Positions 11,943 to 59,987 of a stretch of DNA of 64,000 nt are shown in pieces. Made by a program: the position numbers and the translations under genes. Within the stretch, counting starts at the first letter, position 1. Each line of letters begins with the position of its first letter. This DNA comes from Alphaproteobacteria bacterium (GTDB lineage: Bacteria; Pseudomonadota; Alphaproteobacteria; Rs-D84), in assembly GCA_009777955.1 (NCBI GenBank), contig WRKW01000002.1, positions 5,294 to 69,293 of the forward strand, given 5' to 3'. Below the pieces are notes generated by a model. The model was not told the origin of the DNA. It searched no databases and saw only the letters and a list, made by a program, of their open reading frames with translations.

Positions 11943-12227
11943 ATGAAAAAACTTATCTTCATACTTCCCGCAATTTTTATCGCGGCGAACTCAGCAAACG
12001 CGAATCCGCTGGTAGCCTGTCCGAACGGAATGACCATGGAGATTCATAGCAATGTAACACTGCGTCCCGGAACAACATGCAATACCGGAGAGGATGTACA
12101 CGAATCGAGCATACAGAAATGCACAGCGTCATCTACCACCAAATGCTGGCTGTTTGTGGATGAATCGGATGGCTTCAGCGATGATGTCGGTAATTATGGT
12201 TACGGTTTTTGCCCAATGACATCTTAA
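11943..12227 (+). CDS. Small secreted Cys-containing protein (94 aa)
   Basis: AAAGGAA RBS. Signal peptide ending ANA. Confidence 0.45.
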   Translation: MKKLIFILPAIFIAANSANANPLVACPNGMTMEIHSNVTLRPGTTCNTGEDVHESSIQKCTASSTTKCWLFVDESDGFSDDVGNYGYGFCPMTS

Positions 12228-13887: not shown

Positions 13888-14424
13888 ATGAAAGCCAAAG
13901 ATTTTCGCACCTTTTGCTTGCGTTTGCTGAAATATGAAATGGGTATAACGCTGACAATGCGCCAGCGGGGTCGGAATGTTCCGATAGAAATAAACGGCGA
14001 AAACCAAGATACCCAAAACTGGGATAAGCTTTTGTTAAATGTGGAATGGGGTGAATTCAAAGAAAAAATTTTGCTAAGGCTTATAATGCACGGTGAATAT
14101 CCTATCTGCGGGATCAGTGGCAGACCGATAAAAGAAGAATGCCAGTTATCCAAAGATCATCAAGTTTGCAAAAGCAACGGGGGGTCTTATCGGCTTTCTA
14201 ATCTTCAGCCCGCAATGCATGAAGCAAACGGCAAACGTGGTAATAAAAAATTGGGCAATTCGTCGCCGTATTTAAATTGTAATACCAACGGAAAGATTAT
14301 AACAAATATCCGGCAGATTGAAGAGCGTAAGGATCACAAGCCAAAGTACAGAAATAAAAAGAAAATCCGTGTTTTTAATCTGGCAGATGAGATGATAAAT
14401 AGGGCAAGCAGAAAACAAAGATAA
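13888..14424 (+). CDS. HNH endonuclease family protein
   Basis: CGISGRPI...LSKDHQVCKSNGGSYRLSNLQ...HEANGKRGNK matches the HNH beta-beta-alpha metal finger (DH...N...N/H). Confidence 0.55.
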   Translation: MKAKDFRTFCLRLLKYEMGITLTMRQRGRNVPIEINGENQDTQNWDKLLLNVEWGEFKEKILLRLIMHGEYPICGISGRPIKEECQLSKDHQVCKSNGGSYRLSNLQPAMHEANGKRGNKKLGNSSPYLNCNTNGKIITNIRQIEERKDHKPKYRNKKKIRVFNLADEMINRASRKQR

Positions 14425-14548
14425 AAAAATAGGCTTTGTGGTAGAGAGTATTTTTTTGCATTTTGGCAAAAATATTTATTAAAAATAAACTTGACAAATC
14501 CATATACAGGTCTATCATGTTTGTATAATCTAACCAAAAGGCAAAAAA

Positions 14549-15100
14549 ATGTTTAACATATTTAATAGAAAACCTAAAAAAACACAATCGCATGATGAAA
14601 CGCAACAGGCGCATAACAAAACGTATTTTATTAAAAACTATCTTATAGTTACCCACAATATCCCGACCAAGGGCGAAGTTCCGGTGTTCGTTCATGTCTT
14701 TTCCGAAAGTATGCAGATGCTGGGCGTGCCAGAAATGTACGCGTTAAGCGATAATTGCAAGGCCAATCAGAAAGAAAATTGCAGTGGACTTAGCGTTATG
14801 AAAAAAATGATAAATAAAGAAAATGGGGATGGCTATTTCGAAGGAACTATGAGTGAAATGAAAAAAAAGTTTCCAAAGATAGGTTTTGACTGTCTGGTAA
14901 GAACCGATATCGGTGAATATTATTTGCGTATAGTAAAGCTTAGCACTACGACCATGACCGAAGGTGGAACTGCGCCATGCAAAAATATCTGCGGAAAGTG
15001 CGATAAGTGTAGGGAATCCCAGCCAACGGTTATTGGTAACGTAAATAGCCTGGTCGAACGTTTTCTGGACAATTGCAATTCGTGCAGAAACGGCAGATAA
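14549..15100 (+). CDS. Hypothetical protein with C-terminal CxxC...CxxC cluster (183 aa)
   Basis: Upstream is very AT-rich. C-terminus has a zinc-ribbon-like CKNICGKCDKC...CNSCRNG. Confidence 0.4.
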   Translation: MFNIFNRKPKKTQSHDETQQAHNKTYFIKNYLIVTHNIPTKGEVPVFVHVFSESMQMLGVPEMYALSDNCKANQKENCSGLSVMKKMINKENGDGYFEGTMSEMKKKFPKIGFDCLVRTDIGEYYLRIVKLSTTTMTEGGTAPCKNICGKCDKCRESQPTVIGNVNSLVERFLDNCNSCRNGR

Positions 15101-15173
15101 AATCGCATTAAAAAATTACCATCATACCTGCGACGGCAAATGATTCCGTTGATATGATTATCCCTTAAACGGC

Positions 15174-15195
15174 TCTCGTAAGAGAGCCGTTAATA
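15174..15195. repeat. Hairpin repeat acggctctcgtaagagagccgt (probable terminator of the upstream gene)
   Basis: Perfect 8-bp stem. Same family as the 12303 repeat. Confidence 0.7.
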
Positions 15196-15225
15196 ATGCG
15201 TTCACTTTACATGACTAAATACAAA

Positions 15226-15254
15226 TTGACCTTTGTCATGGCATATGGTATAAT
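15226..15254 (+). promoter_or_regulatory. Near-consensus sigma70 promoter (TTGACC, 17 nt spacer, TGgTATAAT)
   Basis: -35 at 15226-15231. Extended -10 at 15246-15254. AAAGGAG RBS follows, then the ATG at 15276. Confidence 0.6.
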
Positions 15255-15275
15255 ATACCCAAAGGAGAGAGTATC

Positions 15276-15785
15276 ATGAATACATTTAACAAAACTATAA
15301 AGATAACAAGTATCCTTGCTGTATTAACGATAATCCCATTGCATGGGTCTATTGCCGCTGTTGCGTGTATGGCAAGACCCATAAGTCCGACGAGTTGTCC
15401 AGAAAGTGGCGTAACCCAGTGTCCTGCTAGCGGTACCAGTGGTAATGCCACAAATCAAGATTGTACCAACCTATCCCTTGGCGATTGGAAATTAACGGGT
15501 TGTACCGGAAGTAATGTATCAGAGTTCAGTGGCACAAGCCTGTGTTCAAGCACAAGCGGAACATATCCTAATTTTGGCAACCCTGTTACAGATGGTGGCA
15601 GTAATTGTTGGTGTAAGATAACCAGTATTCCCGGGTTTAGTGTCGCTTCGTCAGCTTGGGTTTGCCGGGGCACCGTCGGCGGGGGTTTGTCCGGTTGTGC
15701 GGATTACTGCGCGTACCATTGCGCGGACTTCGTCCGGAACGTTTCCGTATTCCGGTCGGCGCTGTTTGCGGCTCTCGGCCTTTAA
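15276..15785 (+). CDS. Cys-rich secreted protein, paralog A (169 aa)
   Basis: Signal peptide. About 90% identical over the first 60 aa to the product of 24443..24994. Shared CWCKITSIPGFSV block. Confidence 0.6.
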   Translation: MNTFNKTIKITSILAVLTIIPLHGSIAAVACMARPISPTSCPESGVTQCPASGTSGNATNQDCTNLSLGDWKLTGCTGSNVSEFSGTSLCSSTSGTYPNFGNPVTDGGSNCWCKITSIPGFSVASSAWVCRGTVGGGLSGCADYCAYHCADFVRNVSVFRSALFAALGL

Positions 15786-16085
15786 TGTTATGGCGGTCTG
15801 ATGTCATTGTGGTCTGGTGTCATTGCGAGTCACAAAGTGGCGAAGCAATCTTTTCAGGTATTCCGTGTCATTGCGAGTCGCGCCGTCAGGCGGACGAAGC
15901 AATCTGTTCCAACGATGGAAGTATAAAAATTCCATTGTCTGGAAGGATTGCTTCGCGGTCTTCGACCACTCGCAATGACACGGAATGCTGGAAAAGATTG
16001 CTTCGCGGTCTTCGACCACTCGCAATGACACAAAATATCTGGAAAGATTGCTTCGTGGTCTTCGACCACTCGCAATGACACGAAA
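15786..16085. repeat. Cluster of five ~50-bp units (GTGTCATTGCGAGT, variable hairpin core, CGAAGCAATC), two forward and three inverted
   Basis: Direct reading of 15817-16080. The six-frame ORFs here (15804..16130 etc.) are repeat artefacts. Confidence 0.8.
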
Positions 16086-16187
16086 TGTTATATTGGAATA
16101 CAATATAAATCTTAAACATTGAAAATTCATACTAATATTGATATACTAAGCCTGTGAAACTTAACCATTAATCATGGAGCCTATGAT

Positions 16188-16526
16188 ATGATAACAGAAT
16201 CGAATAATATAAAAATATTTGTAAAAAACGGTAACAAGGTACAGGTCAGCGAAGGTGTGTTTTTGGAACTGATTAATATGGAATATGTTGTTGATTTCTT
16301 AAAAGATATATCCAAACAGGTTCCATCACCAGGATTCAAGGTAACTTTATCATATAAGCTTACCGTAGATAATAACGAATATCTTGGCGAATTTACGCAT
16401 AACCATTATTCTGGGAATGAAAGTAAAATGGACGAAAAAAGTCCTTATGATGTTAAATTTATAACCTGGAAATTTGGGGACGATAATCCGGATAAATATT
16501 TTGAATTTGATGTTATAAAAAAATAG
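16188..16526 (+). CDS. Hypothetical protein (112 aa)
   Basis: ORF only. AT-rich island context. Confidence 0.3.
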   Translation: MITESNNIKIFVKNGNKVQVSEGVFLELINMEYVVDFLKDISKQVPSPGFKVTLSYKLTVDNNEYLGEFTHNHYSGNESKMDEKSPYDVKFITWKFGDDNPDKYFEFDVIKK

Positions 16527-16688
16527 AGAATCAAAACAGACGGCGTTCTGTTTTTATCCCCCGCCCCGCCCGGTAAAAATTGGTGGTGCGGGGAGAGAAT
16601 AAAAATAGTTTTCAATTTCAACCTTTACCAAAAGGCTACGGTGGTAACAAAAAACTGCGCCTTTTGGGTAAAGTTTAGAAAATATAAA

Positions 16689-17126
16689 CTAGTGCTGTTT
16701 TTCCTTTTCCGCTTTAATTGAAAGATGCCGTGCTGCCATATTCACGGCTTTGTAAAGCTCTTCCGTGCAATCGACACATTTTTTCTGGCAACTTTCGCAT
16801 TCTGGAAATTCGACTTTGAATACCATAACCCCTTTTATGAGATTATTTCTGGGTTCGATACCATTTGGGCGTTTATCCATATAGCCAAATTCGGCATCAT
16901 GTCCCCTGTAATCTGTTATTATTTTTGCTTCTTGGGTAAAAGTAATCGTTCCATTTACTCTGGTTTTGGCATCCATTTCTTTATCCGCCTTTTCATAGTC
17001 TTTTTTGATGCATTCGCAGATAAGATCCGTTATTTTCTCGTGCGGATTCGCAAAGCCAAAATATGGAAGCGAGATTTTAATTTCCTGGTTTTTAAAGAGA
17101 AATTTTGCTGTGTCATAATCATTCAT
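16689..17126 (-). CDS. Hypothetical protein with CxxC-x5-CxxC cluster (145 aa)
   Basis: CESCQKKCVDC near the C-terminus. Confidence 0.35.
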   Translation of the reverse strand: MNDYDTAKFLFKNQEIKISLPYFGFANPHEKITDLICECIKKDYEKADKEMDAKTRVNGTITFTQEAKIITDYRGHDAEFGYMDKRPNGIEPRNNLIKGVMVFKVEFPECESCQKKCVDCTEELYKAVNMAARHLSIKAEKEKQH

Positions 17127-17305
17127 TTATCATCCTTTAATGTTACTTCTCTCTCATAAAACAAAATATAGGGTATATCTATATTTAAAATGCAATCGAA
17201 AATTGGATAAATATGGTGCTGTGGGCAGCTGTGGGAGTATCGAACTAATTTTGGTTATGATATTGAGAGGTTAAGAAAGAAAATCGATACATTCAAACAG
17301 GAAAT

Positions 17306-17866
17306 CTATTTCAATACTTTCCACAAATCTTCAAATGTTGCACCTGTGTCAGAAAAGCAAAAATGTCCTTTGTCCGTATAGTCGTGTCGTGTGATGTTTG
17401 GATATATCTGCATAATATGGTTAACGCTTTTTGTAATCATATCCATATCATCTTGCGAATGAAACAAATGGACGTGTTTGATTTTATTTAACGCTTCTTT
17501 ATTAAAATCGAATTGTAAGAAATCACCCTCTCGTCTATCTGGGTCGATCCATGGCGCAACCAGTACAAGCTTATCCAAAGATATCCCTGGATTCCCATGC
17601 AACCATTTCAAAAAAAATCCACAGCCTGCACTATGTCCAACAACAACCGACAGATTAGAATGGTCTAATTGTTCAAAAGTCTTTTTCCATTCTTCATAAA
17701 CGGGTTTGTAAGGCGCTGGCATTTCCAGACACTGACACAACAGGCCAGAACGCAAAAATTTTTGCTGCAACCACGGCAACCAATGCGCATTTGACGGAGA
17801 TGGGAAGTCCATCTCGAAATACTCCTCTCTATCACAAACACCGTGCAATATAACTGCTGTTTTCAT
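17306..17866 (-). CDS. Serine hydrolase, YdeN/RBBP9 alpha/beta-hydrolase family
   Basis: About 186 aa. GHSAGC nucleophile elbow. Late Asp/His (HSQDD...H). Confidence 0.6.
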   Translation of the reverse strand: MKTAVILHGVCDREEYFEMDFPSPSNAHWLPWLQQKFLRSGLLCQCLEMPAPYKPVYEEWKKTFEQLDHSNLSVVVGHSAGCGFFLKWLHGNPGISLDKLVLVAPWIDPDRREGDFLQFDFNKEALNKIKHVHLFHSQDDMDMITKSVNHIMQIYPNITRHDYTDKGHFCFSDTGATFEDLWKVLK

Positions 17867-17946
17867 TTAATTTCCTTTGCTTTTTGAAATTATAAACAAC
17901 ATTTCATAAAATTAAAGTTAAAACTTAAACAATTTAAGAGAAAATT

Positions 17947-18741
17947 TTAGTCGCTGATTATATCTTCAACCCAGTCTAAAATCTCTTTACTCGGATTGCT
18001 TATCACAAGTTCTTGCCATTGGCCTGTCTTTTGAAAATAATCGTCTTTCCAACCTGGCGAACACACACTTGAAAACTCTGCATTTTTGAAAGAAGTAGGC
18101 AAATCCCATTTAGACCTGCTCATTCCATTTTTAGTTAGAACGCGTTTGTCTGCGTATTTTAATGTTCCGTATTGTCTATCTTTCGGGATAAAAAGCCAGT
18201 TATTATCATCCTGGTCAAAAAGACTTCGTGCAATCTCTTTTTTTGAGTGCGGATGCCATGGACAAATTCGTGCAATATCAGCCGTTCCTTTTATTATTCC
18301 ACCAACTTCCATAAAGCCATAAATTATGTGCTTATCCGGACCAACGAATGCAAGCTTACCATTGTCTTGTAATTCCGTTTGTCTGAACCAACCAAAAAAC
18401 ACAAACAAGTCGCCAATACCAACATTGGATTTTTTAAGGTGTGACAAGGCAGCCCCTTGTTGTCCGAATGCAGGAATCCAATTCTCAGGACAACTATTTA
18501 TGCAATCATTTCTTATGTCCGGGTCAAGATGACAGAATCTAATATCAAAAGCAGGGTTCAGTTCTTTTATTATCTGTTCATAAGTTTTTCCATTATAGGA
18601 AATGTCCGAGAATCTTCGTTCGCTATTTTTATCAGGAATTGGCAATGATAAAAGCGTACCGTCCGACAATATAGGATTTGGCATACCGCCTGCACTTGAA
18701 TCAAAGCCCTTACGGCTTAGAATAATTTTCTGTTTTTTCAT
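17947..18741 (-). CDS. Hypothetical protein (264 aa)
   Basis: Long clean ORF. No recognised motif. Confidence 0.45.
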   Translation of the reverse strand: MKKQKIILSRKGFDSSAGGMPNPILSDGTLLSLPIPDKNSERRFSDISYNGKTYEQIIKELNPAFDIRFCHLDPDIRNDCINSCPENWIPAFGQQGAALSHLKKSNVGIGDLFVFFGWFRQTELQDNGKLAFVGPDKHIIYGFMEVGGIIKGTADIARICPWHPHSKKEIARSLFDQDDNNWLFIPKDRQYGTLKYADKRVLTKNGMSRSKWDLPTSFKNAEFSSVCSPGWKDDYFQKTGQWQELVISNPSKEILDWVEDIISD

Positions 18742-18917
18742 ATATGAATTATAAAGTACGCAGATGCAAAAATAAAGCCCAAACAGGCGGTGAGAATCGA
18801 ACTCCGTGCCATTTCTCCGAAAGGTTGGATTTCCAAGCTTTTTCAGTAGATAGTTCGATAGCTCCGTAAAAACTGCTGATTTAAAATATCATATTAACGG
18901 GCAGTGCAAAAGACAAA

Positions 18918-19163
18918 TTATTTCCAAAGCCTTTTATTCGCGAACGCCTGGCCAGAATGTGTTTTAAGATAATATTCAAATTCTTTCGCCTGACGTTCAT
19001 CAGAAAATGATAAATATGTTATCAATTCCCACGGCTTAAATTTGCTTGTATGTATGGACTTTCCATTATTGTGATCTTTTATACGTTGTTTCAAATCAGA
19101 TGAAAATCCAATATATTTTTGATTTGGGGAGTTGATACTTTTTATAAGATATACATAAAACAT
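18918..19163 (-). CDS. GIY-YIG nuclease family protein (small, YhbQ/UPF0213-like)
   Basis: YVYLIKSINSPNQKYIGFSSDLKQRIKDHNNG matches the GIY...YIG...R..H.N core. 81 aa. Confidence 0.7.
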   Translation of the reverse strand: MFYVYLIKSINSPNQKYIGFSSDLKQRIKDHNNGKSIHTSKFKPWELITYLSFSDERQAKEFEYYLKTHSGQAFANKRLWK

Positions 19164-19185
19164 TGGTGCTTTTTTTGATTTGTGT

Positions 19186-19289
19186 CCAGGCTTCGCTTTT
19201 CAAGCTACGCCGGACTAGTCTTCGCTAACTTCTCTCTACGGCCTGCCTTACTGGCGTAAGCCAGGCGTAGCTCGAAGAGCGAAGCCTGG
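19186..19289. repeat. Long inverted repeat (26-bp arms, 2 mismatches, ~52-bp loop) abutting the tRNA-Gly 3' end
   Basis: ccaggcttcgcttttcaagctacgcc pairs with ggcgtagctcgaagagcgaagcctgg. A single-arm copy occurs at 61896-61920 after tRNA-Ser. Confidence 0.7.
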
Positions 19290-19360
19290 TGCGGGCGAAG
19301 GGAATCGAACCCTCGTCTCAAGCTTGGGAAGCTCGCATTCTGCCATTGAACCACGCCCGC
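19287..19360 (-). tRNA. tRNA-Gly (anticodon CCC)
   Basis: Reverse complement GCGGGCGTGGTTCAATGGCAGAATGCGAGCTTCCCAAGCTTGAGACGAGGGTTCGATTCCCTTCGCCCGCACCA. Near-identical architecture to E. coli tRNA-Gly(CCC). Confidence 0.85.
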
Positions 19361-24424: not shown

Positions 24425-24442
24425 GCACTTCCCGCAATGACA

Positions 24443-24994
24443 TCAAAGGCCAAGACCCGCAAACAGCGCCGACCGGACAGCGGAAGAGTTCTGGGCGAAG
24501 AATGCGCAATTGAACGCGCAGTTATCCGCGCAAATGGACGGAGTGCTGTAGTCGTTCGCGAAAACCCAAGCCGACAAAGCGACACTAAACCCAGGAATGC
24601 TGGTTATCTTACACCAACAGTATTGTCCGTTATCTGCAACAGGGTTGCCAATGTTAAGGTAGCTTCCGCTTGTATTTGAACAAAGGCTTGTGCCACTGAA
24701 TTCCGATACATTACTCCCGGTACAATTTGTTGCTTTCCAATCGCCAAGGGATAGGTTGGTGCAATCACGATTTTGCGTGGCATTACCACCAGTGCCACCA
24801 CTAGCAGGACACTGGGACCAATCACCACTTGGACAACTCGTCGGACTTATAGGTCTTGCCATACACGCCACAGCGGCAATAGACTGATGCAATGGGATTA
24901 TCGTTAATACAGCAAGGATACTTGTTATCTTTATAGTTTTGTTAAATGTATTCATGATACTCTCTCCTTTGGGTATATTTATATTATACCACAT
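24443..24994 (-). CDS. Cys-rich secreted protein, paralog B (183 aa)
   Basis: Paralog of the 15276..15785 product (MNTFNKTIKITSILAVLTIIPLH...). Confidence 0.6.
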   Translation of the reverse strand: MWYNINIPKGESIMNTFNKTIKITSILAVLTIIPLHQSIAAVACMARPISPTSCPSGDWSQCPASGGTGGNATQNRDCTNLSLGDWKATNCTGSNVSEFSGTSLCSNTSGSYLNIGNPVADNGQYCWCKITSIPGFSVALSAWVFANDYSTPSICADNCAFNCAFFAQNSSAVRSALFAGLGL

Positions 24995-25011
24995 ACCATG
25001 ACAAAGGTCAA
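24983..25011 (-). promoter_or_regulatory. Near-consensus sigma70 promoter for paralog B (TTGACC, 17 nt spacer, TATAAT)
   Basis: Mirror copy of the promoter at 15226..15254. Confidence 0.55.
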
Positions 25012-25023
25012 TTTTTATTTAGT

Positions 25024-25200
25024 CATGTAAAGTAAACGCATTCTTAACGGCTCTTTTAAAAGAGCCGTCATGCCTTCCGCCTTCGCTATCGCTACGGTGC
25101 GACAAGGCGCAGACACCCATTGTTCAATAAGGCATCGTGCGCACAGCGCACGATACATACATTATTCATTATTCATTCAGCTGAAATCCACAACCCATAC
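25024..25200. repeat. Mosaic palindromic repeat, inverted copy (hairpin acggctcttttaaaagagccgt plus cgcacagcgcacgataca...attattcattattcattc)
   Basis: Same modules as the 12303 and 50694 repeats in reverse orientation. Confidence 0.75.
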
Positions 25201-26544: not shown

Positions 26545-27600
26545 TTAATTCCACGGTATAGTGGATTTTCCGCATGAAGAATGACCAATAGGCAATGTGC
26601 CCAGATTCGCACAGATTTGATCTGTGGTGCCAATACCAATTTTATGACATGATAAAGCCCCGTCAGTATCATTTATCATAAAGCATCCATCCCAATCGCA
26701 CGAACATCCGCCCCATAACAATCCGCCCATAGATGTGCAAGCCGTCTGTGTTATTGTTTCGGGACACGAGAATATGTTTCCGGTTGTGTTACATGCGGTA
26801 TGTGTAGCGTTTACAACGCCGTCGCAATGTGCACAAGCCGTGCCGTTCCAATATTGGTTTGCGCCGGGACAGCGCAGTTCGCACTTGTTTTGGAAATAGT
26901 TGGGCACGGCGTAATCCACACAGTTGAAACCGATGTATACTTGCCGAATTTCGGTGCGATTCGCATCGGTGCATATTGCGCCCATTGCGTCCGCGCATAG
27001 ATTGCATGTATTGGTAACTGGATTCCAATATCTTCCAGACCATCTGCTGCATTCAATACAAGCACCTATTCCAGAGCTATAATATTGATAGGCGCAAAAT
27101 TCACAATTTCCATTGGAATATACACTGCCGGCCGGACATCCCGTGGATTGCAACGTACACGAACCCGGTGTTCCATAGTATTTGTTTGCTGCGTCGCATA
27201 TACATCCTGAATGCGATGGATCCGGGATTTCGCCCGTGTTGTCACATGTTTTACAGGCATTGCCATTCCAGTATTGGTTAGAACCATCGCAATTGTCGGG
27301 TCTGGGTAACGGTTCTCCGTAGCCAAGTTCTTCCGAATCGAAATAAAAGGTTTGTCCAGCATAGTTTTTCATGCGCAACGAATTCATTGGCATGCTTGAT
27401 GCGCCGTCGTTTGCGGGCGAATAATATAAATGTCCGCTGTCTGTAAGTATTCTTAACGAATTTGACGGTATGTCTGAAAGTTGTGCGGCCGGGGTCAATG
27501 GTATGGAATATTGTCCTATGCGCAGGGTTTGCTGTGCCAATGCTGTACATGTAATGATTTGTATGACGACAAATAGAAAAAATAATTTTAAATCGCGCAT
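26545..27600 (-). CDS. Cys-rich secreted repeat protein (351 aa)
   Basis: Signal peptide. Recurring NQYWNG.AC..CD motifs and about 40 Cys. Confidence 0.6.
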   Translation of the reverse strand: MRDLKLFFLFVVIQIITCTALAQQTLRIGQYSIPLTPAAQLSDIPSNSLRILTDSGHLYYSPANDGASSMPMNSLRMKNYAGQTFYFDSEELGYGEPLPRPDNCDGSNQYWNGNACKTCDNTGEIPDPSHSGCICDAANKYYGTPGSCTLQSTGCPAGSVYSNGNCEFCAYQYYSSGIGACIECSRWSGRYWNPVTNTCNLCADAMGAICTDANRTEIRQVYIGFNCVDYAVPNYFQNKCELRCPGANQYWNGTACAHCDGVVNATHTACNTTGNIFSCPETITQTACTSMGGLLWGGCSCDWDGCFMINDTDGALSCHKIGIGTTDQICANLGTLPIGHSSCGKSTIPWN

Positions 27601-50881: not shown

Positions 50882-53800
50882 TTAATACCCCCATTTCCAC
50901 ATAGTGGGCATGTCGTCGTAATCGCTTAAATTATACGAATTTGAATAACAGTATGCGACATCGTAAAGGCCTGCGTTTGGCCATGCCTGATATATTGGTA
51001 TGGAAACACCATCCTTGTCCCTTGTGGTGGCCGATGATCCCGTAAGATGGAAACAATTTTCGAACGTTCCCAAGTATCTGTCTACTCTATAGTCATCCCA
51101 TATCTGATATACCCCGCCGAACATCCAATTTTTGACATTAGAACAATAAACATCATCTTCGGCTAACCGCCATTCACAATAATTATTTGTTTCGCAGAAA
51201 TTGCATTGGTAACCGTCAAATAGATTATTTAAGAAAACGGTTGGAATGTGATATGCGCCGGATCCATATTGATTATAACAATAATGTATACTACCATAAG
51301 TAAGATTTTCTTCTTCCACGGTAATGTAACCATACTGTACGTTAGCTTCAGTCGGTATTCTGACATCGCAATTGTAATAATAACCCGCGTGTTCTGTAAG
51401 GGTACTGGGATCAAGAATTGTAAAACCGTAGTATTCGCCAGCCTTATCATTTCCATAACAACTATAGTATCCGTATGTTATAGTAACGTCGTTGGTATAA
51501 TAAGCATTCCAATATTTACCATTATTATCCGTGCCATAGCACTGATAAAGACCATATTCCCATACGGCACTGTGGGTTGGAATATATATATATTCACCAT
51601 TTTCATTCGTATCCTGGCAAATCTTAATCTCATAATCCTGATAAACTTCGGTAGTGGTGAAATTTATGGGGGATCCGTTATTGTTATAGTATGTACAAAC
51701 CTTACGTTCCCAATCGTAGTCCCAATCTGTTGTGTAAAAAGAAGTCCAGATGCCTTGTTCATTGTAATGTTCACAAGCTTTTCGATTTTCATCATAATAA
51801 ACATTGGTGGTGTCGAAGGTGATGGAATTACCAAATTCGTCGCGAACATTGGTATCACATGTCATCAAGTTTTCGTTATAATATACATCATTGGTAACAA
51901 AATCGGTTCCATGATTATAGTCATGACATCTGTACGCCTGAAAAACTTCGTCTTCTGTAAAATATCTGCCTCCCCACGAACCATTATCATAGTATCCAGA
52001 GCAATAATATGGCGGATTACTATATGAATAGTAAGAGCAGCTCCAATTATTAACAATATCAAAATAGGATGGATAGCATGGATGATTGCCATCAATACTT
52101 AACCAATCTGAAACTTTCCAGCAATTATAATCACCATCGGTACTAAAATAAAAACTCCACGGTTGGTAGCAAGGAATATTACCATTGGTGCTGAATGTAC
52201 CTTCTGGATGATCTTCGCAATAATGGTTGCCATTTACGCTTAGATATTCATGGTAACCAAGATCATAGCACATATATCCATTAAAAACAAAGCCGTTATT
52301 CATAAAATCACTATAACAGTCAAGTCCATTGTTGGTTTTAATAATATTATTGTAGTTGTAATTACAAGGGATATAAGCACCATTTTCAAGAGCGTATAAA
52401 TAGCCAGAAGAGCTCCAAGCCGTATGACATACATTATGATCTGAATCAAAGAAGCCTTCGTTATTGTAATAACAGTAATCATATTCTCGATATGGATTTA
52501 CATAACGTTCATTGTGTTTTGAACAATTACTTCCGCCGTCATAACTGCTACAGGTATGAACTGAAGTCCAATTCTGAATTCCATCGAATAAACCGGCACC
52601 TATGCTTGTGATATTGGTATTCGCGAAAGTCGAAGCAAACATGCCCTCTGCCGGTGGCCCTATGATATTGGAAAATAGATTACCGGGTACTTTGCCGGTA
52701 ATATTTCTTGCGCCAGAAAATGTGCCAAGGAACATATATGATGCCGGTGACCCGAAAAGCGTACCGAATATATTGTGCGGGATTGTTCCGGTAAGTCCGC
52801 TGCAACCAACAAATGTGCCATAGTACATGGAACTTGCTGGCATACCATTTACCCCAGAAAATAACGGCGGTAATGCATACGGTTGCGAGTTCTCGCTGGT
52901 AAGGCCGCGGCAGTTTCTGAAAGTTTCATAGAACATACTATCTGCCGGTGCGCCATTAATTCCGGCAAACAGGTTTGCAGGAATTGAACCGGTCAATCCT
53001 TGACAATTCCAGAATGTCTGGCTGAACATACTGCTAGCAGCCGATCCTGTAAAAGTTCCGAACAATCCCGGTGGGATTGAACCGGTCAGGCCAGTGGCAT
53101 GGTAAAATGTAGAGCTGAACATACTATTCGCTGGCACACCATTGATTCCGGCGAATAATGCGCCGCCTATACCGGTAAAGCCGGTGTAAGCGAATGTACC
53201 ACTAAACATACTAGACGCTGGCGCACCTTTTATTCCTTTGAACAGATCTTTTGGAATAATTCCCGTTAATCCATAAACATTCCAAAATGTACTACTGAAC
53301 ACGCTGTCTGCTGGTGGTCCATCAAGTCCCGCAAATAAATCTTCTGGAATTTCGCCAGAAAGTCGGGCTTGAGAAAACGTGCCACTGAACATACCAGACG
53401 CTGGCGCGCCGGTAATACTTGCGAACAGGCGGTTTGGAAGTGTTGGGGGGGGAAAATTCCATCCATAATTTTGTCCTAAATTACCAAATGTGTACGCAAA
53501 CATACTGCTTTTTCCCGTACCTATGACACTTTCAAACAATGTTCCCGGAATTTTTCTTAAAGCATTGCAGTAGAAAGTTTGATAAAAACTTGGTATCTCG
53601 GCATTGGTGGTGCCAAGTATTGGGAACAGGCGACCCAAATCTCCACATATATCTCTCATTCTTGTATCCGTATTACAATTATTTTGCCACCATCCGACGT
53701 AATTATGATTTCTTGCGAAACTGATTGCTGGTGTCGAGCTTGATAAATTATATGCCGTTGCCCCCCCACCGATACCGACGGTGTAATTGCCCGGTACCCT

Positions 53801-54496
53801 ATATGTTCTTGAATACATTCTTTCTTCTGTGTCGGTTTTTTTTATCACGGTTATTCCGTTCCACTCTTCGCCTTCTGCTTCGCGATCGCCCCAATCTATG
53901 CAAAATTCCCCTTTGGCTGAAATGGTAAAGTGGAAAAATCCGCCGGATGGTACATCTTCAAGTTTTACAAAAAATTTGGGCTTACATTCGACCAATTTTT
54001 CGATGCCTTCAATTACCGTGGCACCGTTTGTGGCGGTTTCGGTTGAAAGGACGTGGTCGCAGAAATTGCTTCTGTTCGCTGGACCGCCAATATGTTCGTT
54101 TATCCGGTCGATTGTGCATAAAAGAAACTTCATGTTCGATACGGCTTTCCATACTACGTCATTGCCCGCTTCCAATGATACGGGAAAGGCACAATCACCA
54201 TCCAGACACATTGTTTTGGTTGATCCTACCTTGTGCTTTATGTAATCTTTCACAAGCTGGTTATTCGCAATTTGACAGCTTTGGGTCGCGGAATGCAGAT
54301 CTGGTTTCTCATAGATATCGCCGGGCATTACAACGGATGGAATATCTGGAACATTGTTAAGACAATCCGGGGATACGAACCCGATATCTTTTACCACTTC
54401 GCATGTGTCCCAGTCAACGATATATTTCGCCCATGCATGCGGCGCAAACAGTATGAATGACAGGCAAACAGCAAAGAAAAAGGAATACTTTTTCAC
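50882..54496 (-). CDS. Giant secreted tandem-repeat protein (1204 aa)
   Basis: Signal peptide. About 10 copies of a ~33-aa repeat (G.PA.SMFS.TF..C.GLTG.IP..LF.GI.G). Then a Tyr/Asn/Asp/Cys-rich region with ~26-aa repeats (YYDEN...C..YN..G....FTTT.VY). Confidence 0.7.
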   Translation of the reverse strand: MKKYSFFFAVCLSFILFAPHAWAKYIVDWDTCEVVKDIGFVSPDCLNNVPDIPSVVMPGDIYEKPDLHSATQSCQIANNQLVKDYIKHKVGSTKTMCLDGDCAFPVSLEAGNDVVWKAVSNMKFLLCTIDRINEHIGGPANRSNFCDHVLSTETATNGATVIEGIEKLVECKPKFFVKLEDVPSGGFFHFTISAKGEFCIDWGDREAEGEEWNGITVIKKTDTEERMYSRTYRVPGNYTVGIGGGATAYNLSSSTPAISFARNHNYVGWWQNNCNTDTRMRDICGDLGRLFPILGTTNAEIPSFYQTFYCNALRKIPGTLFESVIGTGKSSMFAYTFGNLGQNYGWNFPPPTLPNRLFASITGAPASGMFSGTFSQARLSGEIPEDLFAGLDGPPADSVFSSTFWNVYGLTGIIPKDLFKGIKGAPASSMFSGTFAYTGFTGIGGALFAGINGVPANSMFSSTFYHATGLTGSIPPGLFGTFTGSAASSMFSQTFWNCQGLTGSIPANLFAGINGAPADSMFYETFRNCRGLTSENSQPYALPPLFSGVNGMPASSMYYGTFVGCSGLTGTIPHNIFGTLFGSPASYMFLGTFSGARNITGKVPGNLFSNIIGPPAEGMFASTFANTNITSIGAGLFDGIQNWTSVHTCSSYDGGSNCSKHNERYVNPYREYDYCYYNNEGFFDSDHNVCHTAWSSSGYLYALENGAYIPCNYNYNNIIKTNNGLDCYSDFMNNGFVFNGYMCYDLGYHEYLSVNGNHYCEDHPEGTFSTNGNIPCYQPWSFYFSTDGDYNCWKVSDWLSIDGNHPCYPSYFDIVNNWSCSYYSYSNPPYYCSGYYDNGSWGGRYFTEDEVFQAYRCHDYNHGTDFVTNDVYYNENLMTCDTNVRDEFGNSITFDTTNVYYDENRKACEHYNEQGIWTSFYTTDWDYDWERKVCTYYNNNGSPINFTTTEVYQDYEIKICQDTNENGEYIYIPTHSAVWEYGLYQCYGTDNNGKYWNAYYTNDVTITYGYYSCYGNDKAGEYYGFTILDPSTLTEHAGYYYNCDVRIPTEANVQYGYITVEEENLTYGSIHYCYNQYGSGAYHIPTVFLNNLFDGYQCNFCETNNYCEWRLAEDDVYCSNVKNWMFGGVYQIWDDYRVDRYLGTFENCFHLTGSSATTRDKDGVSIPIYQAWPNAGLYDVAYCYSNSYNLSDYDDMPTMWKWGY

Positions 54497-54862: not shown

Positions 54863-55399
54863 ATGAGAAAAATTTCAATATTCTGCACCCTGTTTTCCGT
54901 GCTTTGTATATCTTCGTATGCTGCCCGGGAAATTACAGTTTACCATTCCCCGAACTGTATGTATTGTCATCATGCGATTGACTTTATAAATGACAACCTT
55001 GTGAATGAATACCCGGATCTGATTGTGACACAGGTAAATGCCGCCCTGCCCGCCAATGGCGAAACTTTCCGTGCGGCGGTCAGAAAATGTGACCTGTCGG
55101 GATTTGGTGTTCCATTGGTTGTAATCGGCGACAGATGTTTCCAGGGATTTTCTGCGGCAACTGGTGATGAATACCGTAATGTCCTTGAAGCCATTGTTCC
55201 AGAAGAAGTCGCGGCCGCTGGACAAGGTTTGATTGCCGATGAAACAATGGGTATGGAAACAGAAACTGTTCATGCGGTACAGACCCCGAGTAATGATGCC
55301 CGCATTGGCAAAACCCCGGTTTTCCTTTATGCTTTATTCGGAATATTCCTTTTGGCACTGGGGACAGTGTTGTTGGCAAAAAAAAGACGCAAGGCGTGA
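54863..55399 (+). CDS. Secreted thioredoxin-fold protein (CxxC) with C-terminal membrane anchor
   Basis: Signal peptide. YHSPNCMYCHHA CxxC motif. C-terminal transmembrane segment plus KKRRKA. RBS AAAAGGAGAA. Confidence 0.5.
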   Translation: MRKISIFCTLFSVLCISSYAAREITVYHSPNCMYCHHAIDFINDNLVNEYPDLIVTQVNAALPANGETFRAAVRKCDLSGFGVPLVVIGDRCFQGFSAATGDEYRNVLEAIVPEEVAAAGQGLIADETMGMETETVHAVQTPSNDARIGKTPVFLYALFGIFLLALGTVLLAKKRRKA

Positions 55400-55438: not shown

Positions 55439-55789
55439 ATGGCAGTAATGGAAGATTTGGATGTTTATAAACTAGCATATCAGATTGTTCTGAAAATATA
55501 TAAACTGACCGCACAATATCCGAATGATGAAAAATTCGGATTAATATCGCAAATGCGTCGCGCTGCAATATCAGTAGTTTCCAACTTGGCCGAAGGCGGG
55601 GCAAGAATAACTTATGGAGAGCAAAGGCACTTTGTTGGAAATGCTAGGGATTCTATTGTAGAATTGCGTACTCAAGTATGGATATCTAGAGATATCGGTA
55701 TTATGTCAAAAGAAGATTCGGTTGATATCTTGAATGATATTGAAAGAACAAAAATGATGATGAACGGATTGTTAAAAACAATAAAATAA
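55439..55789 (+). CDS. Four-helix-bundle protein (23S rRNA intervening-sequence protein family)
   Basis: DVYKLAYQ...VLKIYKLTAQYPNDEKFGLISQMRRAAISVVSNLAEG is the conserved core of this family. 116 aa. Confidence 0.75.
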   Translation: MAVMEDLDVYKLAYQIVLKIYKLTAQYPNDEKFGLISQMRRAAISVVSNLAEGGARITYGEQRHFVGNARDSIVELRTQVWISRDIGIMSKEDSVDILNDIERTKMMMNGLLKTIK

Positions 55790-56677: not shown

Positions 56678-59158
56678 GTGAGAATAAAACATTCATTTTT
56701 TGCACTATTGTGCGCCGTGCCGTTTGTTGTGAACGCTGCCCCGGCTCCCAATCCCCGCGCAACCGGCGATCAATCGGTGCGCCAGTCGGCCGACACGGCC
56801 GCACCGTCATCTGCTACGATTCGGAAAAGCATGCCTTCGGATTATGTTACCCGCTCTTCTTCTCGTACCGCTGTACAGCCCCGTGCAACTGCAAACCCCG
56901 CAGTTCAAAGTCGTGCGGCGGCCATTGGTGCCACGGCAAATCGTGCGCAAATGCCTTCGACCCAACCGGTAATATCGCGTCGTGCGCGATCTGCAACAAT
57001 GATGCCAGCCGGGGGTCAGGTTTCCCGCGCCGCTACATCGCGTTCTGCCGTTAATCCTGCGATGGCGCGTTCCGCCACTATGCATGGTGGTCGTGCCGGT
57101 ACAAATCTTTCCCGCGCCGGTGTTGCGCGCGCGCCAACCCCGATATTCGGCGATATGTCCAAAATGGGGGGGGCTTATGCTGCGTGCCGCGAAACCTATG
57201 CCACATGTATGGATCAGTTTTGTGCCAATAAAAGCGATGTTTATCGCAGATGTATATGTTCTGAAAAATTCCGTGAATTTGCCGATACGGAAGACGCTAT
57301 AAAAACAGCCCAAAATATGTTAAGTAACTTTGAAGACGAAAACCTTACTAATGTCAGCCTGTCCGCAGCAGAAGCGGCCAGCCAGTACCAAGCGACTGAG
57401 GGCGAAAAAGCCGCCGCGAAATTCAAAGACAAATCCGCCGCCGCGAAAATGCTGGAAAACATAGGCGATATCTTGTCTGGTAAAAGTAAGCCGGACAAAG
57501 GGGGCGCATCGAAAATATTGGCACCGATTAACTTTTCCGCCGCGATGGATGATATCTGGGGTGGTGGCGATACTTGGGGTTCCAGCAGTGGTCCGGACGT
57601 AGCAGAAATGGAGGGCAAGGCATTGTATGACGAGGTTAATCGCCAATGTTCCAATATGGCAAAATCAGCATGCGAAACCGAAGCGAATTTGCAGATGGTG
57701 CGCAGTGCATACGGGATAATGGTGGTTCAGGACTGTAACGCATACCAGAAAGGTATCAACACGATGCGTGACAAGGTTGTAGAGCGTGTGCGTGAAATGA
57801 ACGTTGCGTTACGCAATGCACGTCTGGAAGATTATCGTTCGCACAATTCGGCATCGGTCAATGAATGTATTGCAAAAGTTCGTGCGGAAATACTTCAACC
57901 GACGGCTTGTGGTCCGAATTGGGAAAGATGTCTGGACTTTACCGGAAACTATATAAACGCAACAACGGGCGAGGCTATATTCTCTATGAATTTGTTTCAG
58001 TTGTCCAGCCTTATCAATTTACCCGATCTTGGTGCCAAACCTGATCAGGTTACACAAAGATATCTTTCCGAACTGGATGCATTCAGGGCAAAAGGTTTTG
58101 TAAAGGGACCACTTGACAGCTGTCGCGATGATGCAGATAATGTGTGGAATTCTTTCAGAATGCAGGCACTTATCGAAATCGCCCAGGCTCAAGATGCAAA
58201 GATAAAACAAGTAAAGGATAGTTGTGTTGCGACCATGAAAGAATGTTATGATACGACTAGCGACGGTTTAAAAGATATGGACGATACTACTGCGCAAATG
58301 TCGGGTGCGTTGTCCGCGCGCGCGGCGAAACAGATGTGCGCGGACAAGGTAGCCGGTTGCGCAAGTCTTTACTTTTTGCCAAGTCCCGGAAATCCGACAC
58401 CGCGTGCATGTGAATTCGCAGCCAATGGAACCATTACGAATGCCCAAAGTTGTGGTGCGGCGGCTCTTATTGCCTTTGTATCGGCGGTAGACGATATTAA
58501 AATTGAAGAAGGTTGCAAGATGGCTTTGGAAAATTATGTTCAGGATCTTTGCCAACCGGCTTCGGGCGCGACGGGAAGAACTTGGCCGTGGGGATGCGTG
58601 TTGCGGGGGATATGGGCAGAGGGTGGAATTGTCGATATGGTTATAAGGCGTGCCAACGATGTATGTTTGGATGTGGCGATGGAAGAACAGCCATATAGAT
58701 ACAGCTATGACAACGATAGCCCAAAATTGATGCAGGGAGATAAAGATTTGACGGACAGTGATGAATATAACGCCAGCGGAGCCATGATTAGTGAAGTATT
58801 AGAGAGAATAATCGACGATATCGAGGGTTCGCTTATCTCGCAGATGCAAAAGGAATGCGATACTGTCGGTGGGGTATGGTTACCGACATTGGGGGGGCAG
58901 ACACTGGATCCTACGTATAAAAACAATGTTTATGGTGGAAGAGAACCGCCAACTGGCACAGTTGGATTCTGTGCCGAGAATAGTACAAGGTTGTTATGCG
59001 AAGTATTGAACGAACAAACGGGTGGTAGCGGACTTGTAACATACAGCAGTGCTGGTAATGAATGTGTGTTCCAAGCGGACTATTACAAATATCGTTGCGA
59101 AAACGATATGGGCGGAATATGGCAGGACAGCAACTGTTATGTGCAACCATTGCAATAA
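56678..59158 (+). CDS. Large Cys-rich secreted protein (826 aa), GTG start
   Basis: Signal peptide AVPFVVNAAPA. Ala/Arg/Ser-rich low-complexity region. Then a domain with more than 30 Cys. Confidence 0.55.
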   Translation: MRIKHSFFALLCAVPFVVNAAPAPNPRATGDQSVRQSADTAAPSSATIRKSMPSDYVTRSSSRTAVQPRATANPAVQSRAAAIGATANRAQMPSTQPVISRRARSATMMPAGGQVSRAATSRSAVNPAMARSATMHGGRAGTNLSRAGVARAPTPIFGDMSKMGGAYAACRETYATCMDQFCANKSDVYRRCICSEKFREFADTEDAIKTAQNMLSNFEDENLTNVSLSAAEAASQYQATEGEKAAAKFKDKSAAAKMLENIGDILSGKSKPDKGGASKILAPINFSAAMDDIWGGGDTWGSSSGPDVAEMEGKALYDEVNRQCSNMAKSACETEANLQMVRSAYGIMVVQDCNAYQKGINTMRDKVVERVREMNVALRNARLEDYRSHNSASVNECIAKVRAEILQPTACGPNWERCLDFTGNYINATTGEAIFSMNLFQLSSLINLPDLGAKPDQVTQRYLSELDAFRAKGFVKGPLDSCRDDADNVWNSFRMQALIEIAQAQDAKIKQVKDSCVATMKECYDTTSDGLKDMDDTTAQMSGALSARAAKQMCADKVAGCASLYFLPSPGNPTPRACEFAANGTITNAQSCGAAALIAFVSAVDDIKIEEGCKMALENYVQDLCQPASGATGRTWPWGCVLRGIWAEGGIVDMVIRRANDVCLDVAMEEQPYRYSYDNDSPKLMQGDKDLTDSDEYNASGAMISEVLERIIDDIEGSLISQMQKECDTVGGVWLPTLGGQTLDPTYKNNVYGGREPPTGTVGFCAENSTRLLCEVLNEQTGGSGLVTYSSAGNECVFQADYYKYRCENDMGGIWQDSNCYVQPLQ

Positions 59159-59180: not shown

Positions 59181-59987
59181 ATGATGAACATTGCCCGGAT
59201 TTTTGTAATCACTGTTATAATGACAGTTGGCACACCTACTGAATCTAACGCTTTTCTGAAAAAGGCCTGGAACGCTGTCAAAACCACTGTTGCCAATGTG
59301 GTCAGTGTGGGTGGTTTAATCAGCGTGTGTAAAAACAATGACTTTACTCATGCCGGTGAAATGTGGTGCTGTGACAAGACTGTAAGCAGCGGTTGCAAAT
59401 ATAACATCAAAAATAATGAATTTGCGTTTCATGAATTTCCCAATATGCGTAAATGTGTTAAAAAGACTGGGTGTAATCAATTTGATGATCCGGCAGAGAG
59501 AATTTGCGGTGGAAAAACATTGGCGGAATATCAAGGGGAAACAGTATCCAAAGGAAGTGGTTGTTGGGATTGGACACCGAATACGACGGGTGGTCCCGAC
59601 TCTGCTGCTGGTGGTTCTGGTGCCGCTGGTGGCGGTGGTGGTTCATCTGCTTCCCCAGAGGATTGCACGGAATTCCAATATTGGACAGGCTCGGCTTGTG
59701 CCAATAAAACTTCTGTTTCCCTTGCGAATATGCAAAGTTGCAGAAACGAGAGAGAATTTGTAAATTGCGTAAGTCAGCACATGAAAGGCCCACCCGCCGC
59801 AACTTTGCCGACCAGTACCGGAGCCAATGGGTGCCCTTCGAATTCATCCCCTGACTCCAGTTGTGGCAGACAAACTGCTATTGGGTTTCTAAAAAAATTA
59901 AAGTCTGACTCGGGTTGTATAAGAAAGGGCGGTTGCAGATGTAATTCCGGGTATAGGGCATTTTTAAACGCATGCAGACCTGGTTAA
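59181..59987 (+). CDS. Cys-rich secreted protein (268 aa)
   Basis: RBS AAGGA. Signal peptide. Gly-rich linker. Many Cys. Confidence 0.5.
   Translation: MMNIARIFVITVIMTVGTPTESNAFLKKAWNAVKTTVANVVSVGGLISVCKNNDFTHAGEMWCCDKTVSSGCKYNIKNNEFAFHEFPNMRKCVKKTGCNQFDDPAERICGGKTLAEYQGETVSKGSGCWDWTPNTTGGPDSAAGGSGAAGGGGGSSASPEDCTEFQYWTGSACANKTSVSLANMQSCRNEREFVNCVSQHMKGPPAATLPTSTGANGCPSNSSPDSSCGRQTAIGFLKKLKSDSGCIRKGGCRCNSGYRAFLNACRPG

Follow-up and report, generated by a model that had tools for sequence, protein, structure and literature searches.

Cysteine-rich, exported-looking proteins in a gut alphaproteobacterium of the order Rs-D84: a conserved family and its lineage-specific companions

Why does a short stretch of an uncultured alphaproteobacterial genome encode so many cysteine-rich proteins that look exported, and what could hold such proteins together? 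The stretch analyzed here (the window) covers 64,000 nucleotides (nt) of contig WRKW01000002.1, positions 5,294 to 69,293, in the assembly GCA_009777955.1 of an 'Alphaproteobacteria bacterium' from the Rs-D84 lineage. Attention was first drawn to an open reading frame (ORF) at 26545-27600 and to what was described as a group of six unrelated, cysteine-rich signal-peptide proteins. Each of the ORFs named in that original prediction is present in its place and the unusual density of exported-looking, cysteine-rich proteins without annotation is borne out, although the count is not: a 1204-aa ORF (50882-54496, reverse strand) makes a seventh. Cysteine-rich exported proteins of bacteria are already a known kind, and most of the set in this window are orphans. 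What is novel is a lineage-wide family, represented here by an 826-aa protein, with complete conservation of its cysteines and no match to a curated domain or a solved fold, and a conserved cluster in which this family stands next to a swappable cysteine-rich partner, in a lineage about whose biology hardly anything is known. From the ORFs themselves, their cysteine content and signal-like N-termini, and the conservation pattern and gene order described below, we infer export, disulfides, location and function, and our favored reading, held with moderate confidence, is that the seven proteins are Sec-exported, disulfide-stabilized components of the envelope or surface, with one conserved core and several fast-changing members.

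The genes of the window were read from ORF translations, signal peptides were called by a simple hydropathy heuristic together with direct reading of the N-termini, and the mature parts were defined by our own estimates of the cleavage sites. By this heuristic all seven proteins, and a nearby protein with a CMYC motif, start with a basic n-region, a hydrophobic core and a small-x-small site as in Sec signal peptides (candidate sites in the cysteine-rich set are ALA↓Q, VNA↓A, SNA↓F, IAA↓V and ANA↓N, the arrow marking the cut). Cysteine accounts for 3.5-8.5% of the mature residues of the seven. Pooled, it makes up 4.97% of their residues vs. 0.90% in 37 other window genes taken for comparison; a post hoc Fisher test at the level of residues gives p = 3e-42 and an odds ratio of 5.8. 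The recognizable envelope proteins of the window (BamD, RlpA and a LysM protein) contain at most 0.4% cysteine, thus the cysteine-richness belongs to the unannotated exported proteins and not to export generally. The number of mature cysteines is even in four of the seven (28, 28, 18 and 12).

No above-threshold match in Pfam or NCBIfam was found for any of the seven proteins. Five of the ORFs discussed here (paralogues A and B and the 94-aa, 178-aa and 1204-aa ORFs) are called by NCBI as hypothetical proteins of identical length (exact-sequence look-up, n = 5), and the 351-aa and 268-aa proteins are present in NCBI under FWG80_ locus tags. The description of the set as unrelated holds for most members but not for A and B, which are 76% identical, and a weak QYW.G.AC motif is common to the 351-aa protein and the 268-aa one. 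Just beyond the window the same genome carries three more small ORFs: they encode 99-132 aa, their N-termini are signal-like, their cysteine content is 6-8% and none has a Pfam match (L090 4782-5180, reverse strand; L086 17349-17648 and 17666-17995, both forward strand). This suggests that the trait may be genome-wide.

The 826-aa family and the slot downstream of it

The best-characterized member of the set is the 826-aa protein (56678-59158, forward strand), which belongs to a large unnamed family of at least 637 homologues (740-950 aa, ~40% identity), none with a Pfam domain, and has relatives in 277 genomes in a scan of one genome per species. The signal peptide of the protein is followed by an APNPR motif, by ~135 aa of a basic and disordered tract rich in Ala, Ser and Arg, and by a mainly helical domain of ~670 aa. 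The Ala/Arg/Ser-rich low-complexity segment of the original prediction is therefore real (residues 21-157: A 22%, S 13%, R 12%, net charge +15), but the more than 30 cysteines ascribed to the protein come down to 28 in the mature part (3.5%) and 29 in total. We defined the family by a signal peptide, the APNPR motif, a basic tract rich in SR[ST]A and ~670 aa with 28 conserved cysteines. In its members, the conserved APNPR follows the signal peptide and leads into 100-160 residues of SR[ST]A or ARSA repeats with conserved arginines. The window protein aligns over its full length with the 119 homologues examined out of at least 637, at 38-48% identity, and has the cysteine columns common to all of them. 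Each of the 28 mature cysteines is kept in 119-120 of 120 aligned members, and the mean column identity is 38% (51-sequence alignment). The presence of the family in 277 species genomes and the retention of every mature cysteine point to a core family of the lineage with a conserved structural or envelope role.

In an AlphaFold2 (AF2) model of the 826-aa protein built with 51 sequences, the predicted local distance difference test (pLDDT) score is 64 overall; residues 1-157 are disordered, and beyond them the model predicts long helices followed by a small, more confident C-terminal part that contains beta structure. The model had no Foldseek match in PDB or in BFVD (viral models), and the family profile found no solved relative among PDB sequences. 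No CxxC, CxxCH or other classic metal or heme motif occurs among the 28 conserved cysteines. Because every cysteine is conserved, co-loss of cysteines as a guide to disulfide partners was uninformative in this family. Two pairs, C516-x6-C523 and C554-x6-C561, sit on consecutive predicted helices (H486-533 and H543-564) and are kept in all 120 members, and in the model they resemble disulfide-stapled helical hairpins, the pairing being our inference. Such stapled hairpins occur in the twin CX3C/CX9C proteins of the mitochondrial intermembrane space. The 826-aa protein is like these in carrying cysteine pairs on two consecutive predicted helices, but it has x6 spacing, is far larger and shares no homology with them. 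In the favored reading the 826-aa protein would form the first tier of the set, a conserved lineage core in which a basic, disordered SR[ST]A tether precedes a helical domain held by up to 14 disulfides.

Gene order around the family was compared across 82 related loci. In 69 of them, the next gene on the same strand after the 826 homologue codes for a product of 270-550 aa that has a signal peptide and 15-38 cysteines. These downstream partners belong to one family at 65 loci and to a second, unrelated family at the other four, which include the closest relative of the window protein by best-segment identity (L022, 46%); some of the partners give weak EGF-like matches. The use of two unrelated partner families means that the position is conserved but its occupant changes. 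In the window the slot is taken by an exported-looking orphan of 268 aa (59181-59987, forward strand), which starts 22 nt past the 826-aa gene behind a good AAGGA ribosome-binding site, has 18 cysteines in its mature part (7.4%) and does contain the Gly-rich linker noted previously. A search of 5.8 billion proteins returned only the protein itself, and it matches neither of the two partner families by profile, tblastn or blastp. That it might be a diverged member of the main partner family was considered and rejected (E = 1.4 with a profile of the 69 downstream proteins; tblastn and blastp negative), as was the same suggestion for the 351-aa protein, which hmmsearch with this profile did not report and for which tblastn and blastp were also negative. 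We read the 268-aa orphan as a third, unique occupant of the conserved downstream slot. The 826 family would then normally be co-transcribed with a second exported cysteine-rich protein that has been swapped several times in evolution, here for the 268-aa orphan. The family with its swappable partner slot is a concrete target for structural work and localization.

The upstream side of the family is also conserved among the relatives. At 67 of the 82 loci a conserved 204-aa protein ending in NCCIE is encoded upstream, and ~60% of the loci also encode upstream a multi-pass membrane protein (~170 aa), the mature form of which would start with VCPVCT (examples of this upstream region are L005 8777-9313 and 9329-9943, and L004 6126-7274). 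Neither protein has a Pfam match, and by tblastn both are missing from the window. The window instead has, upstream of the 826-aa gene, the CMYC protein, a four-helix-bundle protein of the bAvd/23S-IVS type and CvpA. The four-helix-bundle protein (116 aa, 23S_rRNA_IVP or bAvd type; 55439-55789, forward strand) lies between the CMYC gene and cvpA.

All relatives found through the 826-aa protein come from gut metagenome-assembled genomes (MAGs): Ca. Enterousia, 'Rickettsiales bacterium' MAGs with isolate codes that resemble termite-gut bins, and rumen and faecal MAGs. In this analysis the window's own genome is assigned to the same lineage through these relatives. Enterousia has been assigned to the uncultured order Rs-D84 in a 2025 paper (PMC12306168), which describes Rs-D84 (Ca. 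Enterousia and relatives) as common in animal and insect guts, with genomes of <1 Mb in which the TCA cycle and respiratory chain are missing, transporters are few and hypothetical membrane proteins many, and with a lifestyle that is probably partner-dependent; the peptidoglycan genes MreB, RodA and MrdA are kept (PMC12306168). The exported proteins of Rs-D84 are the obvious place to look for metabolite acquisition and partner attachment.

Lineage-specific members of the set

The 351-aa protein (26545-27600, reverse strand), an exported-looking near-orphan with 28 mature cysteines (8.5%), is identical to the hypothetical protein FWG80_01320 of an 'Alphaproteobacteria bacterium' MAG, and its gene is also found on JGI and ENA metagenome contigs. 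Its signal peptide is followed by the module 'IPSNSLR..LYY' on the N-terminal side, then by five Y[WY]..C..C modules and by a last, C-terminal module, 'GGLLWGGCSCDWDGC'. The recurring NQYWNG.AC..CD units that were seen at the outset are there, two of them exact (residues 108-120 and 248-260) and three in the degenerate form Y[WYS]..C..C. A word-indexed search of 5.8 billion proteins returned only the protein itself, and an exhaustive HMMER search of 1.84 billion representatives gave six matches. One of these is an 89-aa fragment at 74% identity, and one, P0125 (410 aa), is a true homologue with its modules reordered: it shares the 'IPxNSLR..LYY' module, the cysteine-repeat region and the 'GGLL.GC.CGWD.C' module. 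The contig of P0125 has a gene content like that of gut-alphaproteobacterial loci but a different neighborhood. A further match, P0124, is repeat-derived and was set aside as spurious, and the remaining three have only the 'CxCD..N.YYGT.GSC.LC' repeat in common with the 351-aa protein, beside DUF6273.

The only Pfam signal of the 351-aa protein is TNFR_ELAPOR1_6th (PF23091) on residues 161-184, at 19.4 bits below a cut-off of 33.2; there was no Ephrin_rec_like match at E <= 1 and no PDB sequence match, and a single-sequence AF2 model was unusable (pLDDT 39) and left out of the fold search. A pattern search finds five C..(aromatic-aromatic)..G..C-x2-C units with the spacing of ephrin-receptor/TNFR-like repeats, and residues 163-185 align with a true Ephrin_rec_like repeat of L063 (E = 0.019, a single comparison that indicates resemblance only). 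The latter belongs to a related gut alphaproteobacterium in which an 852-aa exported protein (L063 11844-14402, forward strand) combines Ephrin_rec_like repeats (63.5 bits) with the Listeria-Bacteroides (Flg_new) surface-protein repeat, and hence eukaryote-like cysteine-rich modules occur in the lineage. CxxC-rich modules of the ephrin-receptor/TNFR-like kind are also found in surface proteins such as the Giardia VSPs. With Ephrin_rec_like (PF07699), TNFR and furin-like repeats the 351-aa protein has its five aromatic C-x2-C units in common, but it falls below the cut-off and its N- and C-terminal modules are found elsewhere only in P0125. From the sub-threshold Pfam signal and the alignment with L063, the protein looks like a mosaic of small cysteine-knotted modules of the ephrin-receptor/TNFR type, below family thresholds.

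Paralogues A (169 aa; 15276-15785, forward strand) and B (170 aa from its MNTFNK start; 24443-24955, reverse strand) both have a signal peptide and contain 12 (8.5%) and 11 (7.7%) mature cysteines, respectively; A has no Pfam match. They lie within the two arms of an inverted repeat (A in 15169-15796, B in 24432-25068), the arms being ~630 bp long and 8.6 kb apart, with tRNA-Gly, rpsP-rimM-trmD-rplS and tsaD in the segment between them. The 5′ untranslated region and the signal-peptide part are 91-97% identical between the arms and the mature part 81-84%, and an ENA assembly breaks exactly at both arms. The repeat may stem from gene conversion at the 5′ side or from a segment that can invert. 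A third member of the A/B type (69% identity) occurs on a JGI metagenome contig in a different neighborhood, and 10 cysteines are kept among the three known members. For the mature part the dN/dS ratio is 0.5-0.8 among them and ~0.5 between A and B, which indicates relaxed constraint; positive selection was considered and is not demonstrated by these values. Just 3′ of A, at 15840-16087, are three tandem 50-nt units and an inverted copy, which contain 'ACTCGCAATGACAC...GATTGCTTCGCGG', and a similar-looking element also lies 3′ of the A homologue in L089.

The two remaining members are the smallest and the largest. The exported-looking 94-aa protein (11943-12227, forward strand; 5 mature cysteines, 6.8%) has a good AAAGGA ribosome-binding site, no Pfam or NCBIfam match, and is alone in its 90%-identity cluster; it is the weakest member of the set and the least certain gene. 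The 1204-aa protein, likewise exported-looking and with 43 mature cysteines, is encoded divergently from the CMYC protein gene. Its middle part consists of ~30-aa repeats, 'G.PA.SMF..TF....GLTG.IP..LF', that resemble leucine-rich repeats, its C-terminal half is rich in Cys and Tyr, and it has no Pfam match even at E = 5 and no PDB sequence match. Within the favored reading the 351-aa, A/B, 94-aa and 1204-aa proteins would make up a second tier, lineage-specific and fast-changing, and would probably serve as surface decoration, possibly for contact with partner cells or as protection from conditions in the gut. A role of the variable members (351, 268, A/B and 1204) in interaction with a host or partner is possible.

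Disulfides, metal binding and competing readings

In the favored reading small modules and helical hairpins would be stabilized by disulfides between the many cysteines, most likely within one chain and perhaps also between chains. The original prediction had put forward a possible oxidase or isomerase for the set, and a protein with a signal peptide and a CxxC glutaredoxin-like domain is indeed present 1.3 kb upstream of the 826-aa gene. This 178-aa CMYC protein (54863-55399, forward strand), a candidate periplasmic thiol-disulfide oxidoreductase, has a good AAAGGAG ribosome-binding site and is made up of a signal peptide, a small glutaredoxin-like domain, a linker, a C-terminal transmembrane helix and a KKRRKA tail. 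It contains 'ITVYHSPNCMYCHH', with CMYC after beta-1, and 'FGVPLVVIG', with 'GVP' at the position of the thioredoxin-fold cis-proline. Its scores stay below the cut-offs of Glutaredoxin PF00462 (16.3 vs. 22.9 bits) and TIGR02196 of the YruB type (24.3 vs. 88.55), and in PDB it has a weak ScsC match (E = 0.016). It is thus like proteins of the DsbA, ScsC and YruB/NrdH types in its signal peptide, its CMYC after a beta-strand and its 'GVP' loop, but it differs from DsbA and ScsC in a domain of ~85 aa without the helical insert, in its C-terminal transmembrane anchor and in falling below all curated cut-offs. Assignment as DsbA was rejected, as there is no DSBA match in Pfam or NCBIfam and the ~85-aa domain is too short for the helical insert. 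The CMYC protein was not found at any of the 82 related loci. That it may take part in oxidative folding of the cysteine-rich set is a plausible guess that the comparison of loci does not back up, and the CxxC-bearing membrane protein that relatives encode upstream of the 826 family is only a parallel to it, not proof of an oxidase role.

Several observations weigh against the reading of these proteins as disulfide-stabilized envelope components. No DsbA, DsbB, VKOR or DsbD gene was seen in the window and its short flanks (~78 kb inspected), and together with the reported lack of a respiratory chain in Rs-D84 (PMC12306168) this puts the route by which disulfides would be made in doubt. Mature cysteines are odd in number in three of the seven proteins (11 in B, 5 in the 94-aa and 43 in the 1204-aa protein), the six C-x2-C pairs of the 351-aa protein follow one another at 11-15 residues, a spacing that also fits zinc knuckles, the AF2 model of the 826-aa domain is only moderate at pLDDT 64, and the dN/dS of A/B, at 0.5-0.8, does not exceed 1. 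The question raised is how proteins with up to 14 disulfides would be folded in an anaerobe without quinone-linked Dsb machinery.

The main rival, which we nevertheless judge improbable, is that the cysteines bind metal; in a strict anaerobe, for which disulfides are hard to make, the proteins would then serve in the periplasm to bind zinc or iron or as a redox buffer. In the DsbA-DsbB pathway, DsbB is normally re-oxidized through a quinone-linked route. Metal binding becomes more attractive with a respiratory chain reported as lacking, because this re-oxidation route would be missing, and the failure to see Dsb or VKOR genes fits it as well. The C-x2-C pairs of the 351-aa protein at 116/119, 166/169, 181/184, 199/202 and 256/259 stand 11-15 residues apart, as is typical of zinc ribbons and knuckles. 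On the other hand, the 28 conserved cysteines of the 826 family include no CxxC or other metal motif, the 351-aa protein and the modules of the lineage resemble disulfide-knotted modules of the ephrin-receptor, TNFR and EGF types, and the inspection for Dsb genes covered the window and short flanks only. If the cysteines do bind metal, or if the proteins are not located at the surface, the finding reduces to lineage-specific hypothetical proteins.

We rate below metal binding, and consider doubtful, the possibility that the 826-aa protein and its partner form a disulfide-cross-linked lattice, with bonds between molecules, that would strengthen the envelope. The model for such a lattice is the chlamydial cysteine-rich outer membrane complex, in which the adjacent genes for OmcA and OmcB encode exported cysteine-rich envelope proteins and OmcB is beta-rich with a basic N-terminal tract. 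The 826/268 pair is similar in its adjacent genes for cysteine-rich exported proteins, a two-gene arrangement that is conserved across the lineage, in the basic N-terminal tract ahead of the cysteine-rich body of the 826-aa protein, and in coming from a small, reduced, host-associated genome. However, the 826-aa protein is predicted to be helical and shows no similarity to OmcB in sequence or fold and no Pfam match, so that it does not belong to the OmcB type. The organism also differs in keeping peptidoglycan genes (MurJ and RlpA here, and the three reported for the order) and outer-membrane assembly genes, and an even, fully conserved set of cysteines fits intramolecular pairing equally well.

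A more far-reaching proposal, to which we attach still less weight and which we regard as speculative, is that the 826 family and its neighbors make up a hitherto undescribed module that partner-dependent Alphaproteobacteria of the gut would use in the envelope or for attachment, and that it has its own thiol oxidoreductase, which would enable disulfides without a respiratory chain or DsbA/DsbB. In most relatives the module would run from the VCPVCT membrane protein through the 204-aa NCCIE protein and the 826 family to the exchangeable cysteine-rich partner, and here the first two genes of the cluster would have been replaced by a different exported CxxC protein.

Equally unlikely, in our estimate, is the view of the original prediction that these proteins are secreted and reach a host as effectors or toxins, serviced by the nearby CxxC protein. 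Several unrelated, orphan, cysteine-rich exported proteins in a gut lineage that is possibly partner-dependent (PMC12306168), with a glutaredoxin-like CxxC protein bearing a signal peptide close by, would be in keeping with it. The reading is weak because the best-characterized member, the 826-aa protein, belongs to the core of the lineage and has its cysteines under strong constraint, and because no secretion machinery beyond the needs of Sec export and no toxin or host-targeting domain was found in the window; in addition, the CxxC protein is unlinked to the 826 family at the 82 related loci and the neighbors are housekeeping genes (recN, xseA, uvrD, rpoD and dnaK). The proposed host-interaction or effector repertoire is thus not supported. 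Least probable by far is that the small ORFs (94-aa, possibly A/B) are not genes and their cysteine content is a by-product of composition, for although the 94-aa ORF is short and has no known relatives and an odd number of cysteines, it and A and B have strong ribosome-binding sites and are called by NCBI at the same coordinates, the third A/B homologue at 69% identity shows dN/dS <1 and conserved cysteines, and the large ORFs (268-1204 aa) cannot arise by chance at 44% GC.

Genomic setting

The cysteine-rich genes are embedded among housekeeping genes. The surroundings include ruvB, a two-component pair, glycosyltransferases, dnaK and pfk, and further rpsP-rimM-trmD-rplS, tsaD, xseA, recN and uvrD; rpoD, dcd, murJ, era and queA are also in the neighborhood, and bamD, rlpA and a radical-SAM enzyme (UPF0004-type, MiaB-like) are present as well. 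The envelope genes detected (BamD, MurJ, RlpA-SPOR and ExbB/ExbD) indicate that the organism is a diderm with peptidoglycan. A stretch of low GC (35-42%) at 13888-19300 adjoins tRNA-Gly (19287-19360), and its ORFs encode an HNH-like protein, a 183-aa protein with 9 cysteines and no signal peptide, an Nmad3-domain protein and a Ser_hydrolase; this stretch may be a small genomic island.

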